A DNA stretch of 28,187 nt from a virus (IMGVR_UViG_3300023118_000008:1-28187), one strand, 5' to 3'. Shown: positions 4,838 to 27,408, counted from the stretch's first letter. Notes: generated from the sequence alone by a model not told the origin. Translations and numbers: made by a program.

Positions 4838-6535
4838 TTAGTTATATCCTCTACGTGCTTCTTTTGCCAATTCAATCATTGCAAATTTAGAAGGGTCTCT
4901 CATCCAAGTAGAAGCAGAACCGTAAATGAAGAATGATTCTGTCATTGTTTTTCTTGAAGCCACAATGTCTTTTGCAGATTTAGAACTGTAACGTCCGTTT
5001 TCTGTTCCCCAAAATACCTTGTCTCCTTTTGGAACTACCAAGTGGATGTTTGCCTTGTCATTTCCTCCAATGTTGGTAACACCTGCTGGCATTCTACCGT
5101 TGTTAGAGTATGCTTGGTCTGTTACATCCCACATAAGTCCTGAATAAGTGGTGCTTGCAAATCCGTTAGCATTAGCTCCTTGGAATCTTCTGTCTTGAAG
5201 TCCTTGAGCAGCGTAATCTAATCCTTTGTCAACTGTGTGCTCTACTTGTCCAATTCCTGGCAAATAAACAGACTTAACTTTTACAGGCTTAAGAACTAAT
5301 TCTCCCCAGCTTCCTGAAACAGGACTAGAATCCATAATTCTTTGCGCTCCTAAAAGCGGTGCGATACGGTTGATCTGCTCGTTAAATTCATCTTGGTAAA
5401 TCATTTCAAAATTCTTCCCAAGTTCGGTACCTGTCTTGAATCTTAAAACTCTATCGATGACATCCATCATAGGGTTTTGCTTGAACACATAGTCAGCTAA
5501 AACTCCCAAGTGGCTTTTCTTCATCCCCATACGTTTAGGATATGTCAAGATAAAACCTCTTCTCATCTGATGCCACAATCCTTCATTGTATCTTACTGTA
5601 CCTTTTTCAGTTTTTAAAGTAAAACCTCTCTGCCACATTAAAGAGCGAGACATCAAAGTATTAAATTTTCTGATTGTCAAAACTTGCATCATTGAAGCTA
5701 CAGATTTAACTGTTCCTCTTCCTGGTACGTTTTGTTTTAGGAAAGCAATTTCCATTCCTTTTGCAGAATAGTCCTCAACATCTGAAATCAAATCTCTTGA
5801 ACTTGTTTTTCCCCAAGCCAGATCCACTTCATTTGCCTTCCCTGTGTAGAAAGTTTCAGCTCCCATTGGAGAACCAATTTGGAATTCAAAAGTCTGGTAG
5901 TTTGAACCTGCTTCTAGGTGAGCCAAAGCTAATTTTTCTCCATATTCCGCAACCCCGTGTCCTGTATCGATATAAGTAATATCAGATTTCAATAGAGAAG
6001 TATCATAAGTTTTTTCAGAATCATTTGTTCCTAAAACAACTGTATGTAAGAAACCTCCTGCTACTGCCTGAACTGGTTCTGCATCTGAGACTACAATAGT
6101 CATACCTTCATCATCAATGGCATTAGCTGTCAAAGTTGTATTAGGTGCAAACTCTTTGTTCAAGATAATTTGGAAAGTGGTTCCGTCAATACCTGCCAAA
6201 GGCTGGTCAGAAGTATCTCCTGTAGTTTTTGTTCTGTTGTCAGTTTCGATTGGCAAGTCATAGTGGAATTTTCCTTCCCACCCGTTCACTTCCAAAATTG
6301 CTCCTGAAGATAGGGCATCCTGATAAAAAGGAACTACCGATACATCTCCCTGTTCTCCAAATTGCCTGATTAGTCCTAAGTGGTTTCTCAGAGGATCTTC
6401 CTCATAGATGTCTTGTAAAGTGGAATAGTCTTGATATCCTTGTTGAGATACTAATGATCGTGCCGCATCTGCCGTTGTAAAAGCAACAGCCATATCAGAA
6501 TTTCTATTTCCTACATAATTAGTGTAAAAACTCAT
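4838..6535 (-). CDS. major capsid protein (crAss-like, HK97 fold)
   Basis: 565 aa; order terL-portal-acidic protein-this gene; strong high-expression codon bias; downstream terminator; GLWHQMRRG segment resembling crAss MCPs. Confidence 0.85.
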   Translation of the reverse strand: MSFYTNYVGNRNSDMAVAFTTADAARSLVSQQGYQDYSTLQDIYEEDPLRNHLGLIRQFGEQGDVSVVPFYQDALSSGAILEVNGWEGKFHYDLPIETDNRTKTTGDTSDQPLAGIDGTTFQIILNKEFAPNTTLTANAIDDEGMTIVVSDAEPVQAVAGGFLHTVVLGTNDSEKTYDTSLLKSDITYIDTGHGVAEYGEKLALAHLEAGSNYQTFEFQIGSPMGAETFYTGKANEVDLAWGKTSSRDLISDVEDYSAKGMEIAFLKQNVPGRGTVKSVASMMQVLTIRKFNTLMSRSLMWQRGFTLKTEKGTVRYNEGLWHQMRRGFILTYPKRMGMKKSHLGVLADYVFKQNPMMDVIDRVLRFKTGTELGKNFEMIYQDEFNEQINRIAPLLGAQRIMDSSPVSGSWGELVLKPVKVKSVYLPGIGQVEHTVDKGLDYAAQGLQDRRFQGANANGFASTTYSGLMWDVTDQAYSNNGRMPAGVTNIGGNDKANIHLVVPKGDKVFWGTENGRYSSKSAKDIVASRKTMTESFFIYGSASTWMRDPSKFAMIELAKEARRGYN

Positions 6536-10669: not shown

Positions 10670-13600
10670 CTAGCGTCTTGAACGATAAGTTGGTTTCAGA
10701 TTTTTTTGGTAGAAAGATTTGGTTCTCTGTATTTCTTTTCTAGCTTCTTCTTTTCTTCCTTTATATCTGTCAAACGATTTCGATGGAACCCAATGCAAAG
10801 CTTTGATTAAATATTCTAAATAAGCATACCCCCCCATAGCTCCTATTATTCTATCCACGTTGGCATTTTCTTGATAAGATATAATTTCATCCAAAAGGTA
10901 TATATCATCTATTCTTTGAACTCCTTTCAATTCTACAATTTTTATTTGCCCTGTTTCCTTGTCTTCTACTTCTATATCAAAAGTTTCATTACAGTATTCT
11001 ACAAAAAAGTCAAATATAAATCTTTTCACTGCCCTAGGAGTCCATCCAAATTTACGCTTTTCATTATTAGGTCTATTAAAACTTGAAGTAAAGTCTAAGC
11101 TGTTTGCTAAATATTTTTCTGTAAGTTGCCTAGTATCTAAAAAATCTTTAATTTTGAAATCTTCGTTTTCCCCAAAACACGTTGTTTCAAGTTGATAAGC
11201 CTCCATTAATAGCAACCACTTTTCCCAAACTGTTTTATGCTTTTCTGGGCGTATAGAAAGAGATGCTACTATCTTTTTAGAGAAAGGGTCTCCTAAAATT
11301 TCATTCTTCCAAACATAAAATGTGGCAACAGAGTCGGTGTCTGAGTCCTCTTGTTTGTAATCATCAAACCCAGCCGTATATGTACCTATTGGTACTCTTC
11401 CCTCAGGCGGATTTTCAAATATCATAAATGGGGCATCCATCACTCCTTTATAAGGGTATTCAATTAAGGGACGTTGTGAAAGCTCAACTTGTATTTTTCC
11501 GTTTGAATCTTTGTACATTTCTCTCCTTCTATCCCACAAACCCGATTCCCATAAATACTTTCTATGAGCTTTTGCTTCTGCTACAGGGAAAGGATTAACC
11601 TTGCCCGAAAGAAATATTTCAGAAGGATCTATTGGATGATAAGCAAGGAGTTTTACATAAGCTTTTTTATCACTAACCTTATTGTCTCTTTCTATATTTA
11701 TATTCTCAAGTGTTTTTTTCCAATCTGTAACACCTATCATTAGTCTTGAAAGATTGGGACATTCTTCGGCTTTTAATCCTAAGTAGTCACTCATAGACAT
11801 GACGTTCTTTTTACCAAATCTAATTGACATCTGACCTGGTAAAAATAGTCCAAAAGGCCTTTCAGTCCAAGTTTTATGTTCATTAGGGACTCCTCTGTTC
11901 AAATCGTCCCAATTCATCAAGATAACTTTATTTGCTTCAGGATTGCTTAACATTTTTATACCATCTGATGCTAATTCGTCATCGCCTCCTGTATTGAAAG
12001 TACAAAAGTTGTTTGCTAAATAGGTATGGGTATTTCCTGCTGTTAGATTATAAACTTCTTTCTTTCCTATGTACTCAACACTTTTTATGGCTCTCATTGA
12101 TAAGTTATTTAATGACTTACCTTCAAAATAACTCCCTTTCCCTTCTTTATTTAATATGAACTCAAATCCACTTGCACTTTTACGTGTCTTTGTCTTTTCA
12201 TCTAATTTTAATATTTTATCTAAACAGACCTGCTTGTGTTTGCACAATAAAGTTATATTTTCTCTAAATTTTAAAACATCGCTTCTTCTCCCAATATATA
12301 ATCTGTAGATATTTTTATTGGGAACATAACCTCCTTTTCTAAATTCTTTTACAATACTTGAATGTATTCCTAATTTATAAAGCTGATATTTAACCTCCTC
12401 TAACAGTTCTCTAAAATAACAAGTCAAAGTTACAGTTATACAATTTTTGTTTTTATCATATTTCACACTACCATCGGCATCATAATATCCAGCTAAAAGT
12501 TCACATACTGATTTTTTGTCATATTCGTGAATATTTTTAGGAAGTGTTTTAGAAGTTTTACTTTTCAATAACCCAGCCTCCCTAAAAGTAGGTAACATTC
12601 CTCTTATTCCAACATCTCGATAAATACCTCCATTTTTCATTTCAAATGTTCGGCCATCTTTTGTATCATAGTTGGTTTTTATGAATTCATATATTTCTTC
12701 GTCACCGCAGGATAATCTAAGTCCAGAATTACTTGCATTACCATCTCCAATCATTAATCCAAAAAGTCTTGCGTTGATTTCTTGTTTTTTACCCCAGATA
12801 TCTAATTTATCTAGCATGTAAAGTTTATCGCCCTTTTTTAAATCTAAGGCTTTTTTTGCTGTTATTTTTTTGCTCCGCTTCTCACTATTTAAAGGTGTTA
12901 AAAAAGAATGGTCAATACTGCATTCAATACTGTCCCCGCCTTCTGTTGTGATTTTTACACACTCTTTTTTTTCAGGAGGCTTCATCCAAGTTATAAGTTC
13001 TTTACTATATCCTTTTTCATTAAACCCTATAATCCCATCCTCTTGTTTTAAGTCTTCTATATTTATTAAATTACCTTGATTATTCCAAACTTTTGTTCCT
13101 ACACATACACAGGCTGTCAGTAGCGGTGTTGCTCTCATTACACCCTCTCCAAACAAGGCTGGTTCCAATCCTTGTAGTTGATTCATAAAAGGAAATTTGA
13201 AAGCCTCGTCTAATATAAACTCATCAATGGTAAATCCTGCCAAGGATTCACCTTTCTTTTTATTAGTTCCACCATCAAGATTCTTTACATACAAGGCGGC
13301 ATGTCTTTTACGTTTATTATCTTTAGTTCTGATACCAAATTCTTCTCCTTTACCTTCTTTAGTTTCTCCTAAAGAATCCAAGGTGAACGCTGGTTCACAA
13401 TTATCCATGTTAACTTTACAGTTGTCCATAATCTGACCTAAATCCGAAGAAGATCCTCCTGCTAATAAAATACCCATCCTGCCCAGAACTTTGGCTCTCT
13501 CAACACGAGACGCATTTAAAGTTGTCTTAGCGGCACGTCTTGTCGCAGCGATAAGTGCATATCCCTGTTCTCGACTAGCTTTAATAAAATATTCAGACAT

Positions 13601-14494
13601 AATCCACTCATTGTCCCTCAAAGGCGGTCTGTCTGTCACATCCTTGGATTTTGGATGACCGTTAACCATAACTGTTATGGGGTACTTAACTCTAAAATGA
13701 TTTATATGGTAATAAATCCAACCGTCAAAATATACTCCATCGATATCAACCCCGTCTTCAATTTTTTTAAGCTCGTCTACGTAATATTGTATTGTCTCTT
13801 TTTCCTGCTCCCAAAAATGCTTATCAGGATTCCATATAGGGGAGTTTTCATTTAATATGTGTAGATTTTTTGGCGCGGGAGAATCAAAATCTATTTTCAT
13901 TAATTTCATCTTCTCCCTAACAGCAGGAAAATCCCTAACAACCTCTTTATAGACTGCTAGGGACGCTTTCTTGTTATCAAAGAACTCAATATAGTCTGAA
14001 CCTTTATCTTCCTCTTCTACGAAGCCGTAGGAGCTTAAAATTTGGTCTACTTTTGAATACTCAGCAAATACTTCTGAATTGAACTTGGCTTCCTTACTTC
14101 TTAGGTCGTGGATTTTAATGTCAGTCTCGTCTATTTCTAAAGAGTACTTGTCACACCTTTTTAAGTGGATGTTTATTATGTTAGTGGCAAGCTTGAAGAA
14201 AGACTTAAATTTTGGATTTTTATAATCTCCTTTTGACTTGTCTATAAAAAACTTAAGTCGGTCTAGTATTTTTTTAACTAAGCCGACTTGCACTCTAAAT
14301 TCGTTATCTTTTTGGTAGAACTCATTCTCATAGTTTGATGTCTTTCCAAACATAACTATGTCTTTTTCTTCTATAAATAAAAGCTGTACATCCCTGCTCC
14401 AATCAAAATCTTCTAAATGCTGTTTCCATTTCTTGAAGCGGGGACTGTTTCTTTTTATGAACTCATCTATCTGTTCGTTGCTATTGTTTTCCAT
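10670..14494 (-). CDS. terL: terminase large subunit containing an intein
   Basis: ATPase motifs (ATRRAAKTT Walker A-like, FILDEA Walker B), RNase H-like nuclease motifs (YTAGFDDYKQ..SDTDSV, NVDRI); adjacent to portal. Confidence 0.92.
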   Translation of the reverse strand: MENNSNEQIDEFIKRNSPRFKKWKQHLEDFDWSRDVQLLFIEEKDIVMFGKTSNYENEFYQKDNEFRVQVGLVKKILDRLKFFIDKSKGDYKNPKFKSFFKLATNIINIHLKRCDKYSLEIDETDIKIHDLRSKEAKFNSEVFAEYSKVDQILSSYGFVEEEDKGSDYIEFFDNKKASLAVYKEVVRDFPAVREKMKLMKIDFDSPAPKNLHILNENSPIWNPDKHFWEQEKETIQYYVDELKKIEDGVDIDGVYFDGWIYYHINHFRVKYPITVMVNGHPKSKDVTDRPPLRDNEWIMSEYFIKASREQGYALIAATRRAAKTTLNASRVERAKVLGRMGILLAGGSSSDLGQIMDNCKVNMDNCEPAFTLDSLGETKEGKGEEFGIRTKDNKRKRHAALYVKNLDGGTNKKKGESLAGFTIDEFILDEAFKFPFMNQLQGLEPALFGEGVMRATPLLTACVCVGTKVWNNQGNLINIEDLKQEDGIIGFNEKGYSKELITWMKPPEKKECVKITTEGGDSIECSIDHSFLTPLNSEKRSKKITAKKALDLKKGDKLYMLDKLDIWGKKQEINARLFGLMIGDGNASNSGLRLSCGDEEIYEFIKTNYDTKDGRTFEMKNGGIYRDVGIRGMLPTFREAGLLKSKTSKTLPKNIHEYDKKSVCELLAGYYDADGSVKYDKNKNCITVTLTCYFRELLEEVKYQLYKLGIHSSIVKEFRKGGYVPNKNIYRLYIGRRSDVLKFRENITLLCKHKQVCLDKILKLDEKTKTRKSASGFEFILNKEGKGSYFEGKSLNNLSMRAIKSVEYIGKKEVYNLTAGNTHTYLANNFCTFNTGGDDELASDGIKMLSNPEANKVILMNWDDLNRGVPNEHKTWTERPFGLFLPGQMSIRFGKKNVMSMSDYLGLKAEECPNLSRLMIGVTDWKKTLENINIERDNKVSDKKAYVKLLAYHPIDPSEIFLSGKVNPFPVAEAKAHRKYLWESGLWDRRREMYKDSNGKIQVELSQRPLIEYPYKGVMDAPFMIFENPPEGRVPIGTYTAGFDDYKQEDSDTDSVATFYVWKNEILGDPFSKKIVASLSIRPEKHKTVWEKWLLLMEAYQLETTCFGENEDFKIKDFLDTRQLTEKYLANSLDFTSSFNRPNNEKRKFGWTPRAVKRFIFDFFVEYCNETFDIEVEDKETGQIKIVELKGVQRIDDIYLLDEIISYQENANVDRIIGAMGGYAYLEYLIKALHWVPSKSFDRYKGRKEEARKEIQRTKSFYQKNLKPTYRSRR
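11993..13111 (-). mobile_element. intein (373 aa) with LAGLIDADG homing endonuclease
   Basis: Starts CVCVGTKVW after LLTA; ends VYNLTAGNTHTYLANNFCTFN before +1 Thr (TGG); LAGLIDADG motifs LFGLMIGDG and LLAGYYDADG; block B ECSIDHSF. Confidence 0.92.
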
Positions 14495-19018: not shown

Positions 19019-20230
19019 ATGGGAAAATTAAAATGGACATATGAAGCTTGCAAAGAAGAGGCTTTAAAGTATACTACTAGAAATCAATATTCTAAAAATT
19101 CAGCTAGTTCATATAACTCAGCTAGAGAGCATAAATGGTTAAACGATATCTGTTCTCATATGAATTACGAACAGCTTCCCAAAAACTATTGGACTAAAGA
19201 GATATGTCAATTAGAGTCTCTAAAATATTCATCAAAAGTTGATTTCAAATTAAATTCACCAACTGCATATTCTACAGCTAGGAAGAGAAAATGGTTTAAC
19301 GAGATATGTTCACATATGGAAGTTACAAGAAAACCTAATGGATATTGGACAAAAGATAGGTGTAAAGAGGAGGCATTAAAATATACAAACTGCACAGACT
19401 TCCAAAAAAGTTGCTCAAGCGCATATAATACTTCTTTAAAAAATCAATGGTATTGTGAAATAACTAGTCATTTCGAACTAAAAGGTAATTGGTATAAAAG
19501 ATTCATTTATGCGTACGAATTTATAGATGGTAGTGTTTATGTGGGATTAACTTATAATATAGAAGAAAGGAGAATATCCCATAATATAAGCGGAAGTGTG
19601 TTTGAATACATAACTAAAACTGGTTACACATTTAATTTTGTGCAGATAACACCAGAACCTGTTGATGTTGAAGATGCTAAAAAACTAGAAGCTTATTATT
19701 TAGATAAATACATTAAAGAGGGTTGGAAACCTCTGAATAAAAATAAAGCAGGAGGAGTTGGAGGAAACAGTCTAAAATGGACAATTGAGAATTTAAGAAC
19801 AGAAGCACTTAAGTATAACTACAGAGGAGAATTTACAACTAAAAGTCCTTCCGCTTATAACGCGGCTTTAAAAAGAGGGTTATTAGATAGTATTTGTTCC
19901 CATATGACTAGAAAGCATAAAGAAAAAGCAGTATATTCTTTAGAGAAATGTATAGAAATATCTTGTAGATATACTAATATGAGAGACTTTGTAAAAGCAG
20001 AACCCGCCGCATACCACGCTGTCTTAAAAAATAAATGGCAGGAATTTCTATGTGAAACCTTAATTAGAAAAAGGAATGTTAAGAACTATTGGGATTATGA
20101 TAAATGCATAGAAATTTCTAAAGATTTTAAATCTTTTACAGAATTAAGAAATAAACATTATGGTGCGTATAAGTTAATTCTAAAAATGGGTTGGCAAGAG
20201 CGGATAAAAAATAAATTTAAAAATGATTAG
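19019..20230 (+). CDS. free-standing GIY-YIG homing-type endonuclease with six ~52-aa repeats
   Basis: FIYAY-x7-VYVGLT..IEERR core; repeats W..E.C..EALKY....F...S..AY..A....W...ICSHM, three on each side. Confidence 0.8.
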   Translation: MGKLKWTYEACKEEALKYTTRNQYSKNSASSYNSAREHKWLNDICSHMNYEQLPKNYWTKEICQLESLKYSSKVDFKLNSPTAYSTARKRKWFNEICSHMEVTRKPNGYWTKDRCKEEALKYTNCTDFQKSCSSAYNTSLKNQWYCEITSHFELKGNWYKRFIYAYEFIDGSVYVGLTYNIEERRISHNISGSVFEYITKTGYTFNFVQITPEPVDVEDAKKLEAYYLDKYIKEGWKPLNKNKAGGVGGNSLKWTIENLRTEALKYNYRGEFTTKSPSAYNAALKRGLLDSICSHMTRKHKEKAVYSLEKCIEISCRYTNMRDFVKAEPAAYHAVLKNKWQEFLCETLIRKRNVKNYWDYDKCIEISKDFKSFTELRNKHYGAYKLILKMGWQERIKNKFKND

Positions 20231-21602
20231 ATACCAATTAAGAGAGAATCAAAAAGAATCAGTTGAGATAGGCTTGAAAGAACTTACAAATCCAAAAGGT
20301 TGTAAATCAGTACTTTGTCTACCAGTAGCTTACGGTAAAAGCCTCTGTATATCCGAGATAGTTAGAAGGCTTCCAGAAGACGGTAATATATTATGTATGA
20401 GCCCTAACGAAGAATTGTTGGTACAAGGTATCTCAAAAATAGAGTCTTTTGGAACCGTGCCTAACGCCTATAGTGCTTCTATTAACCGAAAAGAGTTTGG
20501 TAGAGTAGTGTATGCCACAAATGGATCTGTAAGTGAGGATTTTTTAAGGCAAGCTAATATCAAGTACGTACTTTGGGATGAAGCTGACTATAGTTCTAAA
20601 GGAGGTAGTGTTTTAGCTGAGAAACTTAAAAAAGCAGGGATAAAAAACATATTAGGATTGAGCGGTACACCCGTATACCTAGAGTCAGGTCAAGATGGCT
20701 CTGTTGTAAAAATAATGACAAGGACTAAAGGCAAATTATTTAATAATATTGCCCAAGTTGTTCAAATGAAAGAAATGACTGAATTGGGATATTGGACACC
20801 TTTGAAATTTATAACAGAGAAAATAGAACAATCTGACTTAAAACTTAATTCCACAGGTGTAGAATATACCGAAGACTCAGTTGCTGAATTTAGTATAAAG
20901 AATGATATTATAGATAAAATAAAAAATAAACTTGAGATAATTGGAAATGAGTCTGTATTGATTTTTGTAAATGGTGTAAATAATGTAGAAGAAATTGCAA
21001 GAGAGACAAATTCTGTTTACGTACATTCAAAATTAAATAAGAAACTCAGAAAGGAATATGTAGAGGGATTCCTAAGTGGAAAATATAAAAGGATGGTTAA
21101 TGATTCGATTCTCCAAGTTGGTTTTGACCTGACATCTTTACAAAATATTATCGATGCAAACCCAACTGCTTCGATTAGGAACTATATACAGCGGATAGGA
21201 AGGCTTGTAAGATTACACAAGGGAAAAGAATTTGGCAGAGTATTCGACATATCAGGGAACTATCAAAGGTTTGGAGATTTAACAGAAATAACCTACGAGT
21301 ACATAAAAGGTTACGGTTGGGGATTATTCAGTGGAGATAAACTACTTACAGACGTACCTGCGGGCTCAAAAGAAATAACAACAAAAGAGTATTTACTTAA
21401 ACACGGAAAGCCTAAAAGCACTCAATTTGAATTTACAGAAGAACACAACGGTTCAGATAAACTATTGAATGGGAAATTTCAAGGGAAAAGCTTAAAACAG
21501 CTCTACTTTAGAAACAGATGGTATTTGAAATATCTTTACGAAAGTGGGTATACTTCGGCGAACAAAAAGATAGAAGAAACTTTGAAGTTAATGTTTGGTT
21601 AA
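20223..21602 (+). CDS. SF2 DNA helicase (RadD/YejH/UvsW-like)
   Basis: Q motif LRENQ, Walker A LPVAYGKS, WDEAD, SGT, LQVGFD, QRIGRLVR; C-terminal GKFQGKSL...WYL.YL module. Confidence 0.88.
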   Translation: MIRYQLRENQKESVEIGLKELTNPKGCKSVLCLPVAYGKSLCISEIVRRLPEDGNILCMSPNEELLVQGISKIESFGTVPNAYSASINRKEFGRVVYATNGSVSEDFLRQANIKYVLWDEADYSSKGGSVLAEKLKKAGIKNILGLSGTPVYLESGQDGSVVKIMTRTKGKLFNNIAQVVQMKEMTELGYWTPLKFITEKIEQSDLKLNSTGVEYTEDSVAEFSIKNDIIDKIKNKLEIIGNESVLIFVNGVNNVEEIARETNSVYVHSKLNKKLRKEYVEGFLSGKYKRMVNDSILQVGFDLTSLQNIIDANPTASIRNYIQRIGRLVRLHKGKEFGRVFDISGNYQRFGDLTEITYEYIKGYGWGLFSGDKLLTDVPAGSKEITTKEYLLKHGKPKSTQFEFTEEHNGSDKLLNGKFQGKSLKQLYFRNRWYLKYLYESGYTSANKKIEETLKLMFG

Positions 21603-21659
21603 AATCTTAGCTAATCTAAAGTTATTTGATTACTTTTACCATACAATAATAAACAAGAA

Positions 21660-21911
21660 ATGGAAGAAGTAGAAGACCAAAGAATTATGGAATTAATAGC
21701 TCCATTTTTTCTTGAAAATGATTTTTACGCGCATAAAAACAAATTCAAAAACGAAAAGTGCACCGTAACAGTAGACTTAGAAGAAGAGTACTATATTATA
21801 GAATGGAAAAATAACTGGATGTCAACTGAAAGCTTGAATCTAATGTATTTAGTTGGAGCTTTAGTTTGCCAAGGGTTAATTAAAAAAGATTTTAAATGGA
21901 AGATAAAATAA
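21660..21911 (+). CDS. hypothetical protein
   Basis: 83 aa; A-rich leader. Confidence 0.65.
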   Translation: MEEVEDQRIMELIAPFFLENDFYAHKNKFKNEKCTVTVDLEEEYYIIEWKNNWMSTESLNLMYLVGALVCQGLIKKDFKWKIK

Positions 21912-22087
21912 TAACATACTCAAATGTTATCGGCAATAAAAAAGGAGAGGTTAGGATTAATACGTTAGAAGACTTATTAAATTTTAGAAAAACTACAGCA
22001 AAAGGAGAAGAAATAATTATAAGTAGATGGACTTCAGAGGAAGATAATGTATTTGAATTGGAAATTTATGACTCTTATAGAGAATAA
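21896..22087 (+). CDS. hypothetical protein
   Basis: 63 aa; overlaps the upstream gene. Confidence 0.6.
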   Translation: MEDKIITYSNVIGNKKGEVRINTLEDLLNFRKTTAKGEEIIISRWTSEEDNVFELEIYDSYRE

Positions 22088-22094
22088 TAGATAT

Positions 22095-22403
22095 ATGGAA
22101 GATAAAATAATTTTAAATCATAAAGCATTAAAGTGCGACCACTGTGATTATAGAGACGATACAGTTGAAAGATATCAATATGAATCCATGATTAACAGAG
22201 CTTGTCTTCAATGTGGCGAAAATCTTTTGACTTTAGAAGATTACAATAATGTTTTGGTTTTAGAACAGGCTGTGAGAATGACTAATAATTTATCAGAGGA
22301 GCAGATCGCAGAAATGACGGCGGGAATAAGTAAAGAAACAGAAGAAAAACTTAAAACTTGGCTAGTAGATACTCATAAAGATATAACATTTACAGAAAAA
22401 TGA
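22095..22403 (+). CDS. Zn-finger protein (start MEDKII at 22095 preferred over the track's 22047)
   Basis: LKCDHCD...Y...INRACLQCGENLLT..DY two-knuckle Zn ribbon. Confidence 0.7.
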   Translation: MEDKIILNHKALKCDHCDYRDDTVERYQYESMINRACLQCGENLLTLEDYNNVLVLEQAVRMTNNLSEEQIAEMTAGISKETEEKLKTWLVDTHKDITFTEK

Positions 22404-22588
22404 AAATATTCATAACAGAAGATACAGACTCAGAAATGATTAGGATAGTTACAGAAGAGGGTAAGCATTTATTTGAAGGTAATTATTGGGATTTTGATTT
22501 CTGTGGTAAAAACATACAAAAACTTCTTAAAAACGCGGGACTAAAAGTAGAATTAACAGAATTGAATTATGATGAGTGGTACAAGTAA
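22400..22588 (+). CDS. hypothetical protein
   Basis: 62 aa; ATGA-coupled. Confidence 0.6.
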   Translation: MKIFITEDTDSEMIRIVTEEGKHLFEGNYWDFDFCGKNIQKLLKNAGLKVELTELNYDEWYK

Positions 22589-22781
22589 TATAGAATATCT
22601 TTTGGCGCAAGAAAAAACTTCAAAAGAAGAAGCACAGTTTGAACTTAACGAACTTGATAAGCTAGATACAAGCAAATTTGATGCTTTTGAGGCACAAAAA
22701 TTGGAAGAGAAAATACAAATGCTTCAACTAGAAGTAACTCTAAGAAACGGATTTATTTCAGATTTAGAAAATTTATTATGA
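22569..22781 (+). CDS. small coiled-coil hypothetical protein
   Basis: 70 aa, heptad-like. Confidence 0.6.
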   Translation: MMSGTSNIEYLLAQEKTSKEEAQFELNELDKLDTSKFDAFEAQKLEEKIQMLQLEVTLRNGFISDLENLL

Positions 22782-22966
22782 AAGAATTTAAAAGCATAGA
22801 TAAGTTTAGAATAACTGGCAGAGGCGAAGTAATAACAGTAAAGCTCGAAGATACAGACAATATAGTAGGTCAAACAGTTCTTATAGACGGAGAAGAATAT
22901 AAAGTCAGAGGAGTTGAATCTATGGGTAAAATTAAAGTTGGAAGTTTTGTAGGACTGCTTGTATGA
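22778..22966 (+). CDS. stand-alone EF-Tu/SelB domain II-like beta-barrel mini-protein
   Basis: IDKFRITGRGEVITV...IVGQTVLIDG...GVE...KVGSFVGLLV vs EF-Tu IEDVFSISGRGTVVTG...VGEEVEIVG...GVEMF...AGENVGVLL; ATGA-coupled on both sides. Confidence 0.6.
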   Translation: MKEFKSIDKFRITGRGEVITVKLEDTDNIVGQTVLIDGEEYKVRGVESMGKIKVGSFVGLLV

Positions 22967-23394
22967 GGAAGTACAGTAAAAAATTAGACTACCAAACAGA
23001 AGATTTAGAAAGTCTAAGCATAAGTGAATTAAAGAAGTTGGCTGACTATTGGCTTAGGCAGTATTTGTTGAGGCGAGAAGGAGATGTGACTTACTATTCT
23101 TGCCCTCTAAAACAAAAATTATACACTAAAGAATATATGGAAGTCGCTCATTACATTGACCGTCAATGTATGAATACTAGATATGATTTAACCAACTGCC
23201 ATTTAATTTCTAAGCAAAGTAACACTTGGGACGCCCAAATTCCAAAAGAAGGTTATAAATCAAAGCACCATTATGATTATGAAAATTATTTAGGTGATGT
23301 TATTGTGAAAGATTTAAAGGAAAGGGGAAAGGAAATTAAGACTTTCCGAAGAGAGGATTACATTGAAGTAATAGAAAAATTTAAAAATGAGTAA
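22963..23394 (+). CDS. NinG/Rap-like HNH-family junction nuclease
   Basis: L.K.AD.W....L..R...C...AHYI.R....RYD..N.H pattern. Confidence 0.75.
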   Translation: MRKYSKKLDYQTEDLESLSISELKKLADYWLRQYLLRREGDVTYYSCPLKQKLYTKEYMEVAHYIDRQCMNTRYDLTNCHLISKQSNTWDAQIPKEGYKSKHHYDYENYLGDVIVKDLKERGKEIKTFRREDYIEVIEKFKNE

Positions 23395-23800
23395 AGAAAA
23401 AATACATCCTTTTCTAAGATTAACTCAACTTGTAGAAGAGTATGATGATAATAAAGAAAGTTATGACGTCCATAAACTACAAATGTTGCGAGAGGAACTA
23501 AGTATAAATTTATTTTATATGTCAGACTCAGCTTCTGTAGCTCTGAGTAATTATGATTTCGCCGAACACGCCAGAAAGACCAAGACAGCGGAAAGAGAGC
23601 AGTATTATCACACACAAGTTGGGAGTAATGGTAAAGCAATGACTGTTTCAGAAGCTCAGAACCTCGCAAGAATAGATTGTAAGGAGGAAGTAGAAAATTG
23701 TAAAGAAACATTGAGGCAGAAAAAAAGAGTCGAAATAATATTATCATCTGTCTCACAAATATTAAATTCATTAAGTACAAGAATAGCGATAACAAGATAA
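23387..23800 (+). CDS. helical protein, candidate UvsY-like recombination mediator
   Basis: 137 aa, all-helical; AEHARKTKTAEREQYY resembles UvsY EAQKKVALKARLDYY; directly upstream of the RecA-like gene. Confidence 0.4.
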   Translation: MSKEKIHPFLRLTQLVEEYDDNKESYDVHKLQMLREELSINLFYMSDSASVALSNYDFAEHARKTKTAEREQYYHTQVGSNGKAMTVSEAQNLARIDCKEEVENCKETLRQKKRVEIILSSVSQILNSLSTRIAITR

Positions 23801-23807
23801 AATAAAA

Positions 23808-24809
23808 ATGGCAAAAAAAGCAGTTAAAGAAGGTGATGAAGTTGCAATGAGTGCAATTGAAAAAATGTATGCAAAATATAAAAAATCAGATAATATCTTC
23901 CAACCACCTAAATCACTAGAGGATATTGACACTTCCGTTGAAAGATTAAAAAATCCATTTCTCTCTTTTGACAGATATTTAGGAGGAGCTCCTGCGTATG
24001 GAAAAATGACGACGTACTCAGCATTTGCTTCATGTGGAAAAACAAGTTTGGCATTAGCTTTGGCAGGAGCAAACCCCGATAAAATAATTGGGTTCAGCGA
24101 CAATGAATTCAATTGGAGTGACAGTTCGTACATATGGATAGATAAATATTTTGGAATTGAAAAAGAAAGAATCCACATCCTACAGCCTACTTATTTAGAA
24201 GAAGGGGCGGAAATGGTTGAAGATTTATGTGAGGTTGCAGATATTGTTATTTTTGATGGATTTGACTCATTAGCACCAAAAGCAGAATATCAAGCAACAA
24301 TGGAAGAACAGCAAATGGGGCTTCAAGCAAGAGCCTATAAGAAGTTTTTCAGAAGATGTATGGGTAAGATTTACAAATCTAAAGCGGCATTAATCGTAAC
24401 TAACCATTTATATGAAAATATTGGAAACCCTTATGAGCCGTTTAAAGAGCCAGGAGGAAGATCTATTCACGATTTTGCTAGTCAAAAGTTATATCTGACA
24501 AGGAGTAATGTAAAAGATAAGGATAAAAATATGACAGGACAAGATGTTAACGTAACAGTTAACAAAGATAAACTATCGGGTAACAGAGGTGCTAAATTTA
24601 GTCTTCCTTATGACAATAAGACAGGTTTTGATATTGAGTTGGATATCTTAAATAACGCGGTTGAATTAGGTATTGTGAAACAAAATGGAACTTTTTTCAG
24701 TTATGACGGTACAAATATCGGACAAGGGCAATTAAAGGCAAGAAATACTTTGGCAGAAAATCCAGAGTTAACATCAGAAATCATTTCACTTTGTAAAGAA
24801 AAATTCTAA
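23808..24809 (+). CDS. RecA/UvsX-like recombinase
   Basis: SFDRYLGG, Walker A AFASCGKT, Walker B IVIFD, APKAEY, MGLQAR, PGGRSIHDFAS, IVKQNGTFFSYDGTNIGQG (RecA C-terminal signature). Confidence 0.9.
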   Translation: MAKKAVKEGDEVAMSAIEKMYAKYKKSDNIFQPPKSLEDIDTSVERLKNPFLSFDRYLGGAPAYGKMTTYSAFASCGKTSLALALAGANPDKIIGFSDNEFNWSDSSYIWIDKYFGIEKERIHILQPTYLEEGAEMVEDLCEVADIVIFDGFDSLAPKAEYQATMEEQQMGLQARAYKKFFRRCMGKIYKSKAALIVTNHLYENIGNPYEPFKEPGGRSIHDFASQKLYLTRSNVKDKDKNMTGQDVNVTVNKDKLSGNRGAKFSLPYDNKTGFDIELDILNNAVELGIVKQNGTFFSYDGTNIGQGQLKARNTLAENPELTSEIISLCKEKF

Positions 24810-26813: not shown

Positions 26814-26989
26814 AAAGATCTAAAGTTTCGGAGAGAGGTATATACATAAAAGAAGGTGAGTATAATTTTACAATTTCAAATACCGAAAATAGAAGAGAAT
26901 TACTCATGTCATTTCCAAAAAGATATGATAGAGAAAAGGCGAAAAAAGAATTTCAAAGTAGATTAAATAGTTACGAGTTATGCCAATAA
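26804..26989 (+). CDS. hypothetical protein
   Basis: 61 aa; overlaps both neighbours. Confidence 0.6.
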   Translation: MSIERSKVSERGIYIKEGEYNFTISNTENRRELLMSFPKRYDREKAKKEFQSRLNSYELCQ

Positions 26990-27408
26990 AAAAACAAACA
27001 GTAAATTGGACTTTTAATGGTAAGGAGATTACTTGCTTGCAAGATTGTGAAGCTAATGCTTTAGCCTTTATTTATAAAATTTCTCTTTTAGACGGCACAG
27101 GAAGATACTACATTGGTAGAAAAACTCTTCTAAAACCAAAACATACTAAAGGTGTGAATAAAGGACTTAGCAAAGGGGAGTATTCATGGAAATCATATTG
27201 TGGATCATCTAAGGAACTCTTAAAAATTTTAAAAGACGAGAAACCTTCCTACAAAAAAGAGATTTTAAAATTTACCTTCACTAAGGCTGAAACAACTTAT
27301 GAGGAAGCAAAAAATATAATCTGCTCAGGAGCTTTGACAGACCCCTTATGTTTTAATTATTGGTTTAAAGGAACAATGTACAGTAAACACTTAGAAAAAT
27401 ACACTTAG
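26980..27408 (+). CDS. short GIY-YIG family nuclease
   Basis: FIYKI-x7-YYIGRK, W..Y.GSS, KEIL.F, TYEE. Confidence 0.75.
   Translation: MPIKKQTVNWTFNGKEITCLQDCEANALAFIYKISLLDGTGRYYIGRKTLLKPKHTKGVNKGLSKGEYSWKSYCGSSKELLKILKDEKPSYKKEILKFTFTKAETTYEEAKNIICSGALTDPLCFNYWFKGTMYSKHLEKYT

Follow-up and report, generated by a model that had tools for sequence, protein, structure and literature searches.

A 62-residue phage protein homologous to EF-Tu domain II and a possible mimic of its pocket face

The gene and its genomic setting

The stretch of DNA analysed here (the window; 28,187 nucleotides) forms the opening 28 kb of a virus record of 144,326 bp, estimated to be 98% complete, which has a G+C content of 32.9% and carries two tRNA genes. 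The stretch occurs in full in a single sequencing run, a leaf-litter metagenome from which the DNA may originate; four other runs contain only small shares of it (0.05–0.13), and no RNA run is listed. The Bacteroidota host suggested in a sequence-only reading of the window is conjectural. Genes for the terminase, the portal and virion proteins occupy the minus strand between 0.9 and 14.5 kb, and from ~17.8 kb onwards the plus strand encodes a GIY-YIG protein, an SF2 helicase, a NinG/Rap-like nuclease and a RecA/UvsX-like recombinase, with small ORFs without assigned function between them. Among these small ORFs of the replication/recombination arm, at positions 22,778–22,966 of the plus strand (ATG start, TGA stop included), sits a gene for a 62-aa protein, described below as a truncated homologue of EF-Tu domain II, which is present in a single copy per 144,326-bp genome.

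The start codon of this gene overlaps the stop codon of an upstream 70-aa ORF (22,569–22,781) in an ATGA at 22,778–22,781, an arrangement also found in the near-identical contigs L012 and L013, and its stop codon overlaps the start of a downstream 143-aa NinG/Rap-like ORF (22,963–23,394, with matches to phrog_32466 at 9e-42 and to the NinG/Rap family phrog_5034 at 2.1e-5) in a second ATGA at 22,963–22,966, both on the plus strand. ORF coordinates and sequence thus confirm the coupling to both neighbours from which a sequence-only reading of the window had judged the ORF to be probably a real gene. The copies in L012 and L013, which come from other samples and are 97% identical to the gene in the window, differ from it by four synonymous and two conservative non-synonymous codon changes, giving a dN/dS of ~0.14; both non-synonymous changes (codons 27 and 29) fall inside a variable loop of the protein. 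Given this ratio and the ~57 diverged homologues that share the same motif pattern, the 62-aa ORF looks like a real gene, as had been supposed.

The surrounding genes form a recombination cassette (20,223–24,809, plus strand) with a counterpart at 6,078–7,847 of L001, a related 131-kb phage (60% identity). It comprises the SF2 helicase (phrog_16), the NinG/Rap-like protein (phrog_32466, phrog_5034), a 137-aa helical protein (phrog_38137) and the RecA/UvsX-like recombinase (PF00154; phrog_97). The RecA-like gene is common to the two phages, and the domain II-like gene is inserted inside the cassette, lying upstream of the RecA-like gene in L001. A further 181-aa ORF of L001 (3,242–3,787, plus strand), 1.2 kb upstream of the domain II-like gene of that phage, gave borderline matches to the class II aminoacyl-tRNA synthetase (aaRS) core (PF01409 at 19.8 bits, exactly the cut-off, and PF00152 at 19 bits) and, to judge from these, looks like a truncated aaRS-like protein; a tblastn search of the 144,326-bp genome found no counterpart.

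Three other ORFs of the window deserve mention in their own right. The 1273-aa ORF at 10,670–14,494 (minus strand) matches a terminase large subunit family (phrog_6681, 1.7e-58) over residues 830–1218 only, and so carries an N-terminal extension of ~830 residues beyond the terminase match. The 403-aa GIY-YIG protein at 19,019–20,230 (plus strand; PF01541, phrog_20046) contains several copies of a ~45-residue module with the pattern KY..-SAY..A-KW-..ICSHM on both sides of the nuclease core, which resembles a homing-endonuclease-like DNA-binding repeat. Finally, the 142-aa ORF at 26,980–27,408 (plus strand) matches phrog_447 (6.7e-21), the label of which, 'NAD synthetase', looks doubtful given the size of the ORF; a homing-endonuclease phrog was matched weakly as well.

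Relationship to domain II of bacterial EF-Tu

The 62-aa sequence had been proposed, from comparison by eye, to be a stand-alone counterpart of domain II of EF-Tu or SelB. Taken singly, the sequence does not rise above chance: a phmmer search against PDB returned EF-Tu at E ~1.4, the same level as unrelated proteins, with exactly the alignment drawn by eye, and the Pfam model of this domain (PF03144, GTP_EFTU_D2; gathering score, 30.3 bits) had no match at E ≤ 10 in either the protein or a six-frame search of the genome. The single-sequence matches that did appear, to NfeD, MacB_PCD, Phage_attach and phrog_82, were sub-threshold and non-specific small barrels. A role in head–tail attachment or head closure was dismissed: PF05354 scored 14.9 bits against a cut-off of 26 and was matched by five of the 57 family members (best E 0.002), phrog_82 reached an E-value of only 0.24, and the gene lies in the replication/recombination arm, outside the structural arm.

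To assemble the family, 1.84 billion representative sequences were searched exhaustively with phmmer, yielding 62 matches, from which five giant proteins (P0002, P0014, P0015, P0020 and P0058) were removed because their scores sum many weak stretches; the two of these that were scanned, P0014 and P0058, are Ig-like repeat proteins (Big_13, BslA). The profile of the remaining 57 members, searched against the PDB sequence set, matched 59 EF-Tu sequences over EF-Tu residues ~216–286 (best E 7.8e-8), spanning bacterial, mitochondrial and reconstructed EF-Tu as well as Q-beta replicase fusions, at 28–36% identity; the first unrelated protein appeared at E 0.71. Of the proposed likeness, the EF-Tu part was thus borne out and the SelB part was not, since SelB was missing, together with EF-G, IF2 and EF-1alpha, from the 60 matches listed at E ≤ 10. 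In addition, 12 members individually matched the NCBIfam EF-Tu models TIGR00485 or PRK00049 (best ~1e-7). PF03144 itself was matched by a single member, at E 0.01, and another single member gave a weak KOW-like match (EFP_N, E 0.018); with EF-Tu dominating, and exclusive among the significant profile matches, a generic KOW or SH3-like barrel was rejected.

At the level of sequence profiles, then, we regard homology to domain II of bacterial EF-Tu as established. The resemblance is significant only at that level, the single sequence being no better than chance, and the protein is best described as a domain II homologue that falls below the curated PF03144 cut-off and is thus not a member of the Pfam family. 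That it stands alone, without a GTPase domain, is likewise supported by the profile, NCBIfam and genome searches: the 144,326-bp genome contained neither the G domain (PF00009) nor domain III (PF03143) at E ≤ 10, in a search for which 14 of 14 control genomes were positive.

For reference, domain II of E. coli EF-Tu spans residues ~205–296 of TufA (TIGR00485; PF03144), and positions 7–73 of the family profile correspond to residues 216–284 of that protein and 226–296 of Thermus aquaticus EF-Tu. All the motifs picked out by eye are present, namely F10-x-I12-x-G14-R15-G16-x-V18-x-T20, V30-G31-x-x-V34-x-I36-x-G38, G45-V46-E47 and G55-x-x-V58-G59-x-L61. In this register, the first strand, the GRG turn and the start of the second strand (22,805–22,831, plus strand, as are all features below) place F10, I12, G14-R15-G16 and V18 at E. 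coli F218, I220, G222-R223-G224 and V226. Conservation among the 57 members is high here (I12 in 50, G14 in 50, R15 in 54, G16 in all 57, V18 in 49), with F10 found in 38 and otherwise replaced by H or Y. The GVE motif (22,910–22,918; E. coli G257-V258-E259) keeps its glycine in 55 members and its glutamate in 56, and the C-terminal G59-L60-L61-V62 (22,952–22,963; G59 in 53, L61 in 52) corresponds to G275-V276-L277-L278. In all, G16 is invariant, and conservation reaches 90% or more at R15, D37, G45, E47, G59 and L61, so that the GRG and GVE residues singled out from the one sequence prove to be conserved family-wide.

Other parts of the protein are its own. An N-terminal motif, F4-K5-S6 (22,787–22,795), is absent from EF-Tu (F in 41 members and Y in another 10, K in 38, S in 42). 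Residues 22–30 (22,841–22,867) form the variable loop, the length of which differs across the family. A tight hairpin, D37-G38-x-x-Y41 (22,886–22,900; D37 in 53 members, Y41 in 49), takes the place of a longer EF-Tu loop, with HMM alignments placing an insertion of 4–5 residues in EF-Tu at this site. The protein also stops at V62, the equivalent of E. coli L278, and so lacks the last barrel strand, with about six strands left; the longer members of the family end within ~10 residues of this point, their alignment running to EF-Tu ~284–286. The earlier alignment of the protein, over its full length, with the domain II barrel thus holds as regards homology, but the protein does not amount to a complete domain II. 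With the last strand goes the equivalent of Arg288 of E. coli, which is Arg300 of T. aquaticus and contacts the 5' phosphate of tRNA (PMC4329189).

What survives of the tRNA-binding face is uneven (residue roles for both pockets follow PMC4329189). The A76 pocket of T. aquaticus EF-Tu includes Leu289 (PMC4329189) and is lined by Glu271, the equivalent of E. coli Glu259 (PMC4329189, PMC9071432). By alignment, all four of the A76-pocket residues appear to be retained, with I12, V18, E47 and L61 taking the places of Ile231, Val237, Glu271 and Leu289, and at this sequence level they are conserved in 50, 49, 56 and 52 of the 57 members, respectively. The aminoacyl pocket, by comparison, is degenerate: Glu226 is replaced by I or L, Asn285 is variable and His67, a domain I residue, is absent, while the position of Asp227 is D in 26 members, that of Phe229 is F in 38 and that of Thr239 is T in 19 and V in 20. 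Compared with EF-Tu domain II, therefore, the phage protein shares the barrel, the GRG, GVE and GxLL motifs, the A76 pocket and the equivalents of F218 and of R223, which in EF-Tu sits at the rim of the thiopeptide pocket (PMC5071768). It differs in standing alone, without G domain, domain III, last strand or R288 equivalent, in the degenerate aminoacyl pocket, in the shorter c2–d2 and d2–e2 loops and in its own F-K-S, D37 and Y41.

Structure prediction, as proposed in the sequence-only reading, again put EF-Tu on top. An AlphaFold2 model computed with the family alignment was all-beta and very confident (pLDDT 97.1, pTM 0.82), and a single-sequence model (pLDDT 58) was discarded as poor. The best 33 Foldseek matches in PDB were all EF-Tu (TMq 0.64–0.72, 28–36% identity), with E-values no better than 0.017 for this very short query. 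By VIA-align, the best match was EF-Tu domain II (Z 6.2, rmsd 2.3 Å over 62 residues, 34% identity), and the domain IIs of other translational GTPases and some phage tail barrels lay less than one Z unit away, so that the fold alone does not single out EF-Tu. The predicted fold is thus consistent with EF-Tu domain II, and the specific assignment comes from the profile evidence above. Among viral proteins (BFVD), the best structural neighbours were A0A6J5RXE1 of an uncultured Caudovirales phage (166 aa, E 5.5e-3) and A0A249XSU6 of Mycobacterium phage Phabba (158 aa, TMq 0.74, 26% identity). Both are uncharacterised and, judging from the models, may represent further phage domain II-like proteins.

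A scattered phage family and its nearest known counterparts

The ~57 relatives are mostly stand-alone proteins of 60–100 aa from uncultured phages, about two-thirds of them no longer than 100 aa, and in the large protein collection that was searched they carry neither a name nor a Pfam domain. Their net charge is neutral to slightly acidic (median −1), reaching +3 or more in only two of the 57. Among 50,697 genomes of isolated phages, tblastn searches with the 62-aa protein and three diverse members gave no credible match; the one candidate, the N-terminus of a 343-aa protein of Blautia phage Montmirail, was rejected at E = 5. A search for longer fused forms found none at E ≤ 0.001, although such a search is in itself weak evidence. 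Within the family, the domain II-like module of P0006 (483 aa) and of P0021 (396 aa) precedes PF18909 (E ~1e-12), the N-terminal domain of dATP/dGTP diphosphohydrolases, which may be a real fusion or an artefact of gene calling; a double CxxC extension occurs in P0003 only, and P0027 has a weak, sub-threshold match to FemAB. These partners are too sporadic to serve as a clue to function.

Across 11 loci on different phage backbones, one with a lambda-type terminase, one with glycosyltransferase clusters and others consisting of arrays of tiny genes, no ORF other than the domain II-like gene is common to all. The remaining ORF matches between loci are confined to pairs of near-identical contigs or to the lineage of the source phage and L001.

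Stand-alone barrels of this kind are already known. Pbp11 of Pyrococcus abyssi (Q9UZY3, PDB 7ANU) is a free-standing domain II-like barrel that binds tRNA, as judged by gel shift, and the PAN–proteasome (PMC9540759), an experimental demonstration that a barrel of this type can work by itself. The phage model superimposes on it with a Z of 5.2 at 15% identity (VIA-align), and both are small EF-Tu domain II-type barrels with an equivalent of E259. Unlike the phage protein, Pbp11 is an archaeal, cellular protein of 11 kDa that retains the R288 equivalent and a flexible N-terminal tail on which its tRNA binding depends (PMC9540759), both of which the phage protein lacks, and no Pbp11 model is among the NCBIfam matches of the 57 members. 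The ESM Atlas likewise holds solo 'EF-Tu domain 2' mini-proteins, among them a cluster of 104 aa from Actinomycetota, 99% of which carry PF03144 and which are longer than the phage family, and a cluster of 81 aa from Nanobdellota; a cluster of 83 aa exclusively from Uroviricota has a similar predicted structure. With Atlas scores of 0.81–0.90, these serve as leads only. The kind is therefore not new, but the phage-borne family itself, truncated and specifically close to bacterial EF-Tu, appears undescribed, and our literature search found no paper on a phage-encoded stand-alone EF-Tu domain II.

What the conserved face might bind

Of the sequence-only reading, the structural part is supported, whereas the roles it offered, those of decoy, translation modulator and tRNA-binding factor, stay conjectural. 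Several factors are known to dock on EF-Tu through the domain that the phage protein resembles. The E. coli tRNase toxin CdiA-CT(NC101) binds domain II exclusively (PMC5737660), and another from E. coli, CdiA-CT(EC869), docks via Phe218 and Glu259, with the F218A and E259A substitutions abolishing its EF-Tu-dependent activity (PMC9071432); the surface it uses is the one conserved in the phage family. A clade of Avs7 immune proteins recruits EF-Tu through domains II and III, enhancing defence, with the domain III contacts weighing more than those of domain II; the same study states that a T4 capsid protein binds EF-Tu (PMC13581612). As possible ligands of the phage protein, the CdiA-CT tRNases and Avs7 would be partners rather than relatives. 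Other attacks on EF-Tu make poorer analogies. Lit and Doc had been offered as examples, but the site cleaved by Lit lies in domain I of EF-Tu and the one phosphorylated by Doc in domain III, and both targets are missing from the phage protein; type IV Thoeris also cuts in domain I. The CdiA-CT tRNases and Avs7 are better models because they dock on domain II itself.

With these precedents in view, our tentative preference, held well short of even confidence, is that the phage protein mimics the pocket face of domain II and competes with host EF-Tu for a ligand, more probably a protein than tRNA, as a decoy-type counter-defence gene. The mini-protein would copy the acceptor-end pocket face, with the aminoacyl pocket and the clamp for the tRNA 5' phosphate lost, and, uncoupled from GTP hydrolysis, EF-Ts and tRNA delivery, would contend with the host factor for something that docks there. 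This ligand might be a toxin that depends on EF-Tu, or an immune sensor that uses domain II to recruit it, and the decoy would be expressed from the replication/accessory arm of the genome. We lean towards mimicry because domain II suffices as a complete docking site for CdiA-CT(NC101), because Avs7 recruits and the T4 capsid protein binds EF-Tu, and because the gene behaves as a mobile accessory. Its being the only ORF common to the 11 loci points to a partner on the host side rather than one encoded by the phage, and the neutral to acidic charge suits a protein ligand better than RNA.

The same features can be read in other ways, the strongest rival being that the A76 pocket still binds the 3'-terminal adenosine of tRNA, or else a small molecule that contains adenine. 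A protein of this sort could cap and protect acceptor ends, hand tRNA to an enzyme or sequester a nucleotide, and the four conserved pocket residues, the precedent of Pbp11 among the structural neighbours and the truncated class II aaRS-like ORF upstream of the gene in L001 all speak for it. We nevertheless find it doubtful: both of the Pbp11 features named above are gone, as are domain III with its T-stem contacts and a 5'-phosphate clamp of the Lys90/Arg300 type, the aminoacyl pocket has degenerated, the family presents no basic surface, and the aaRS-like neighbour is missing from the 144,326-bp genome, which itself has only two tRNA genes. Of comparable standing, and roughly as likely as tRNA binding, is that the barrel was acquired from a tuf gene and retained as a stable scaffold for a job unrelated to EF-Tu, for instance binding a phage or host protein, the EF-Tu-like residues only maintaining the fold. 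The identities to EF-Tu do fall on strand cores and glycine turns; the family has conserved residues absent from EF-Tu (F4/K5/S6, D37 and Y41); phage proteins often contain small barrels of this shape, those of tails and baseplates matching at Z 5–6; and the neighbouring genes serve DNA replication and recombination rather than translation. A mere scaffold would account less readily for the near-invariance of two charged residues, R15 and E47, or for the joint retention of four A76-pocket positions, which exceeds the needs of a generic barrel; other translational GTPases are not known to need the arginine of the GRG turn for the folding of their domain II, which also counts against this explanation.

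Two minor possibilities involve the translation machinery directly. Domain II of translational GTPases contacts the shoulder of the 30S subunit with the involvement of the GRG loop, to which the EF-Tu substitution G222D maps, and a free copy might sit in the factor-binding site and alter the course of translation. The GRG turn, the best conserved part of the family, would fit, but we consider this improbable given that an isolated domain II would have a small footprint, that blocking the factor site would also harm translation of the phage itself and that the charge is neutral to acidic. More improbable still is that the protein binds EF-Tu in trans, for example by docking at the place on the G domain that domain II occupies in the GTP form, with regulation or inhibition of EF-Tu as the outcome. 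In its favour is the general logic that a detached domain may compete for intramolecular interfaces; co-folding with E. coli EF-Tu scored 0.00 in a run without controls, which speaks neither for nor against binding.

Mimicry of the pocket face, which we still prefer, has difficulties of its own. The residues of the pocket also belong to the core and the turns of the barrel, and their conservation may thus be purely structural. Since EF-Tu makes up 6–10% of the E. coli proteome (PMC13581612), a decoy would need a much higher affinity than EF-Tu itself or a scarce target. Docking in the manner of CdiA-CT(NC101) is disfavoured by the lack of conservation, within the family, of the d2–d2x hairpin and the R262 equivalent, and docking in the manner of Avs7 by the reliance of Avs7 on domain III, which the phage protein lacks. 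In its more specific form, in which the decoy disarms EF-Tu-dependent sensors or toxins, such as STAND proteins of the Avs7 type, BECR-fold tRNases of the CdiA-CT type or systems of the Gol/Lit type, we judge the proposal rather unlikely. If true, it would add a new type of anti-defence protein, one that mimics a domain of a translation factor, and we know of no previous description of that type.

Regardless of which reading holds, EF-Tu has recently emerged as a hub of the conflict between phages and bacteria: Lit and type IV Thoeris cleave it, Avs7 enlists it as a structural cofactor, and CdiA tRNases use it as a platform for docking. Here is a family, nameless in Pfam, PHROGs and NCBIfam, that carries only the pocket face of its domain II and does so as a solo protein across unrelated phages. 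With 62 residues and a very confident model, the protein should be easy to express, mutate and solve, and it offers a ready probe for factors that dock on this face of EF-Tu during infection. Were it an acceptor-end binder, it would be the smallest module known to bind tRNA ends in this way; were it a decoy, it would show which EF-Tu-dependent defences matter in soil bacteria.
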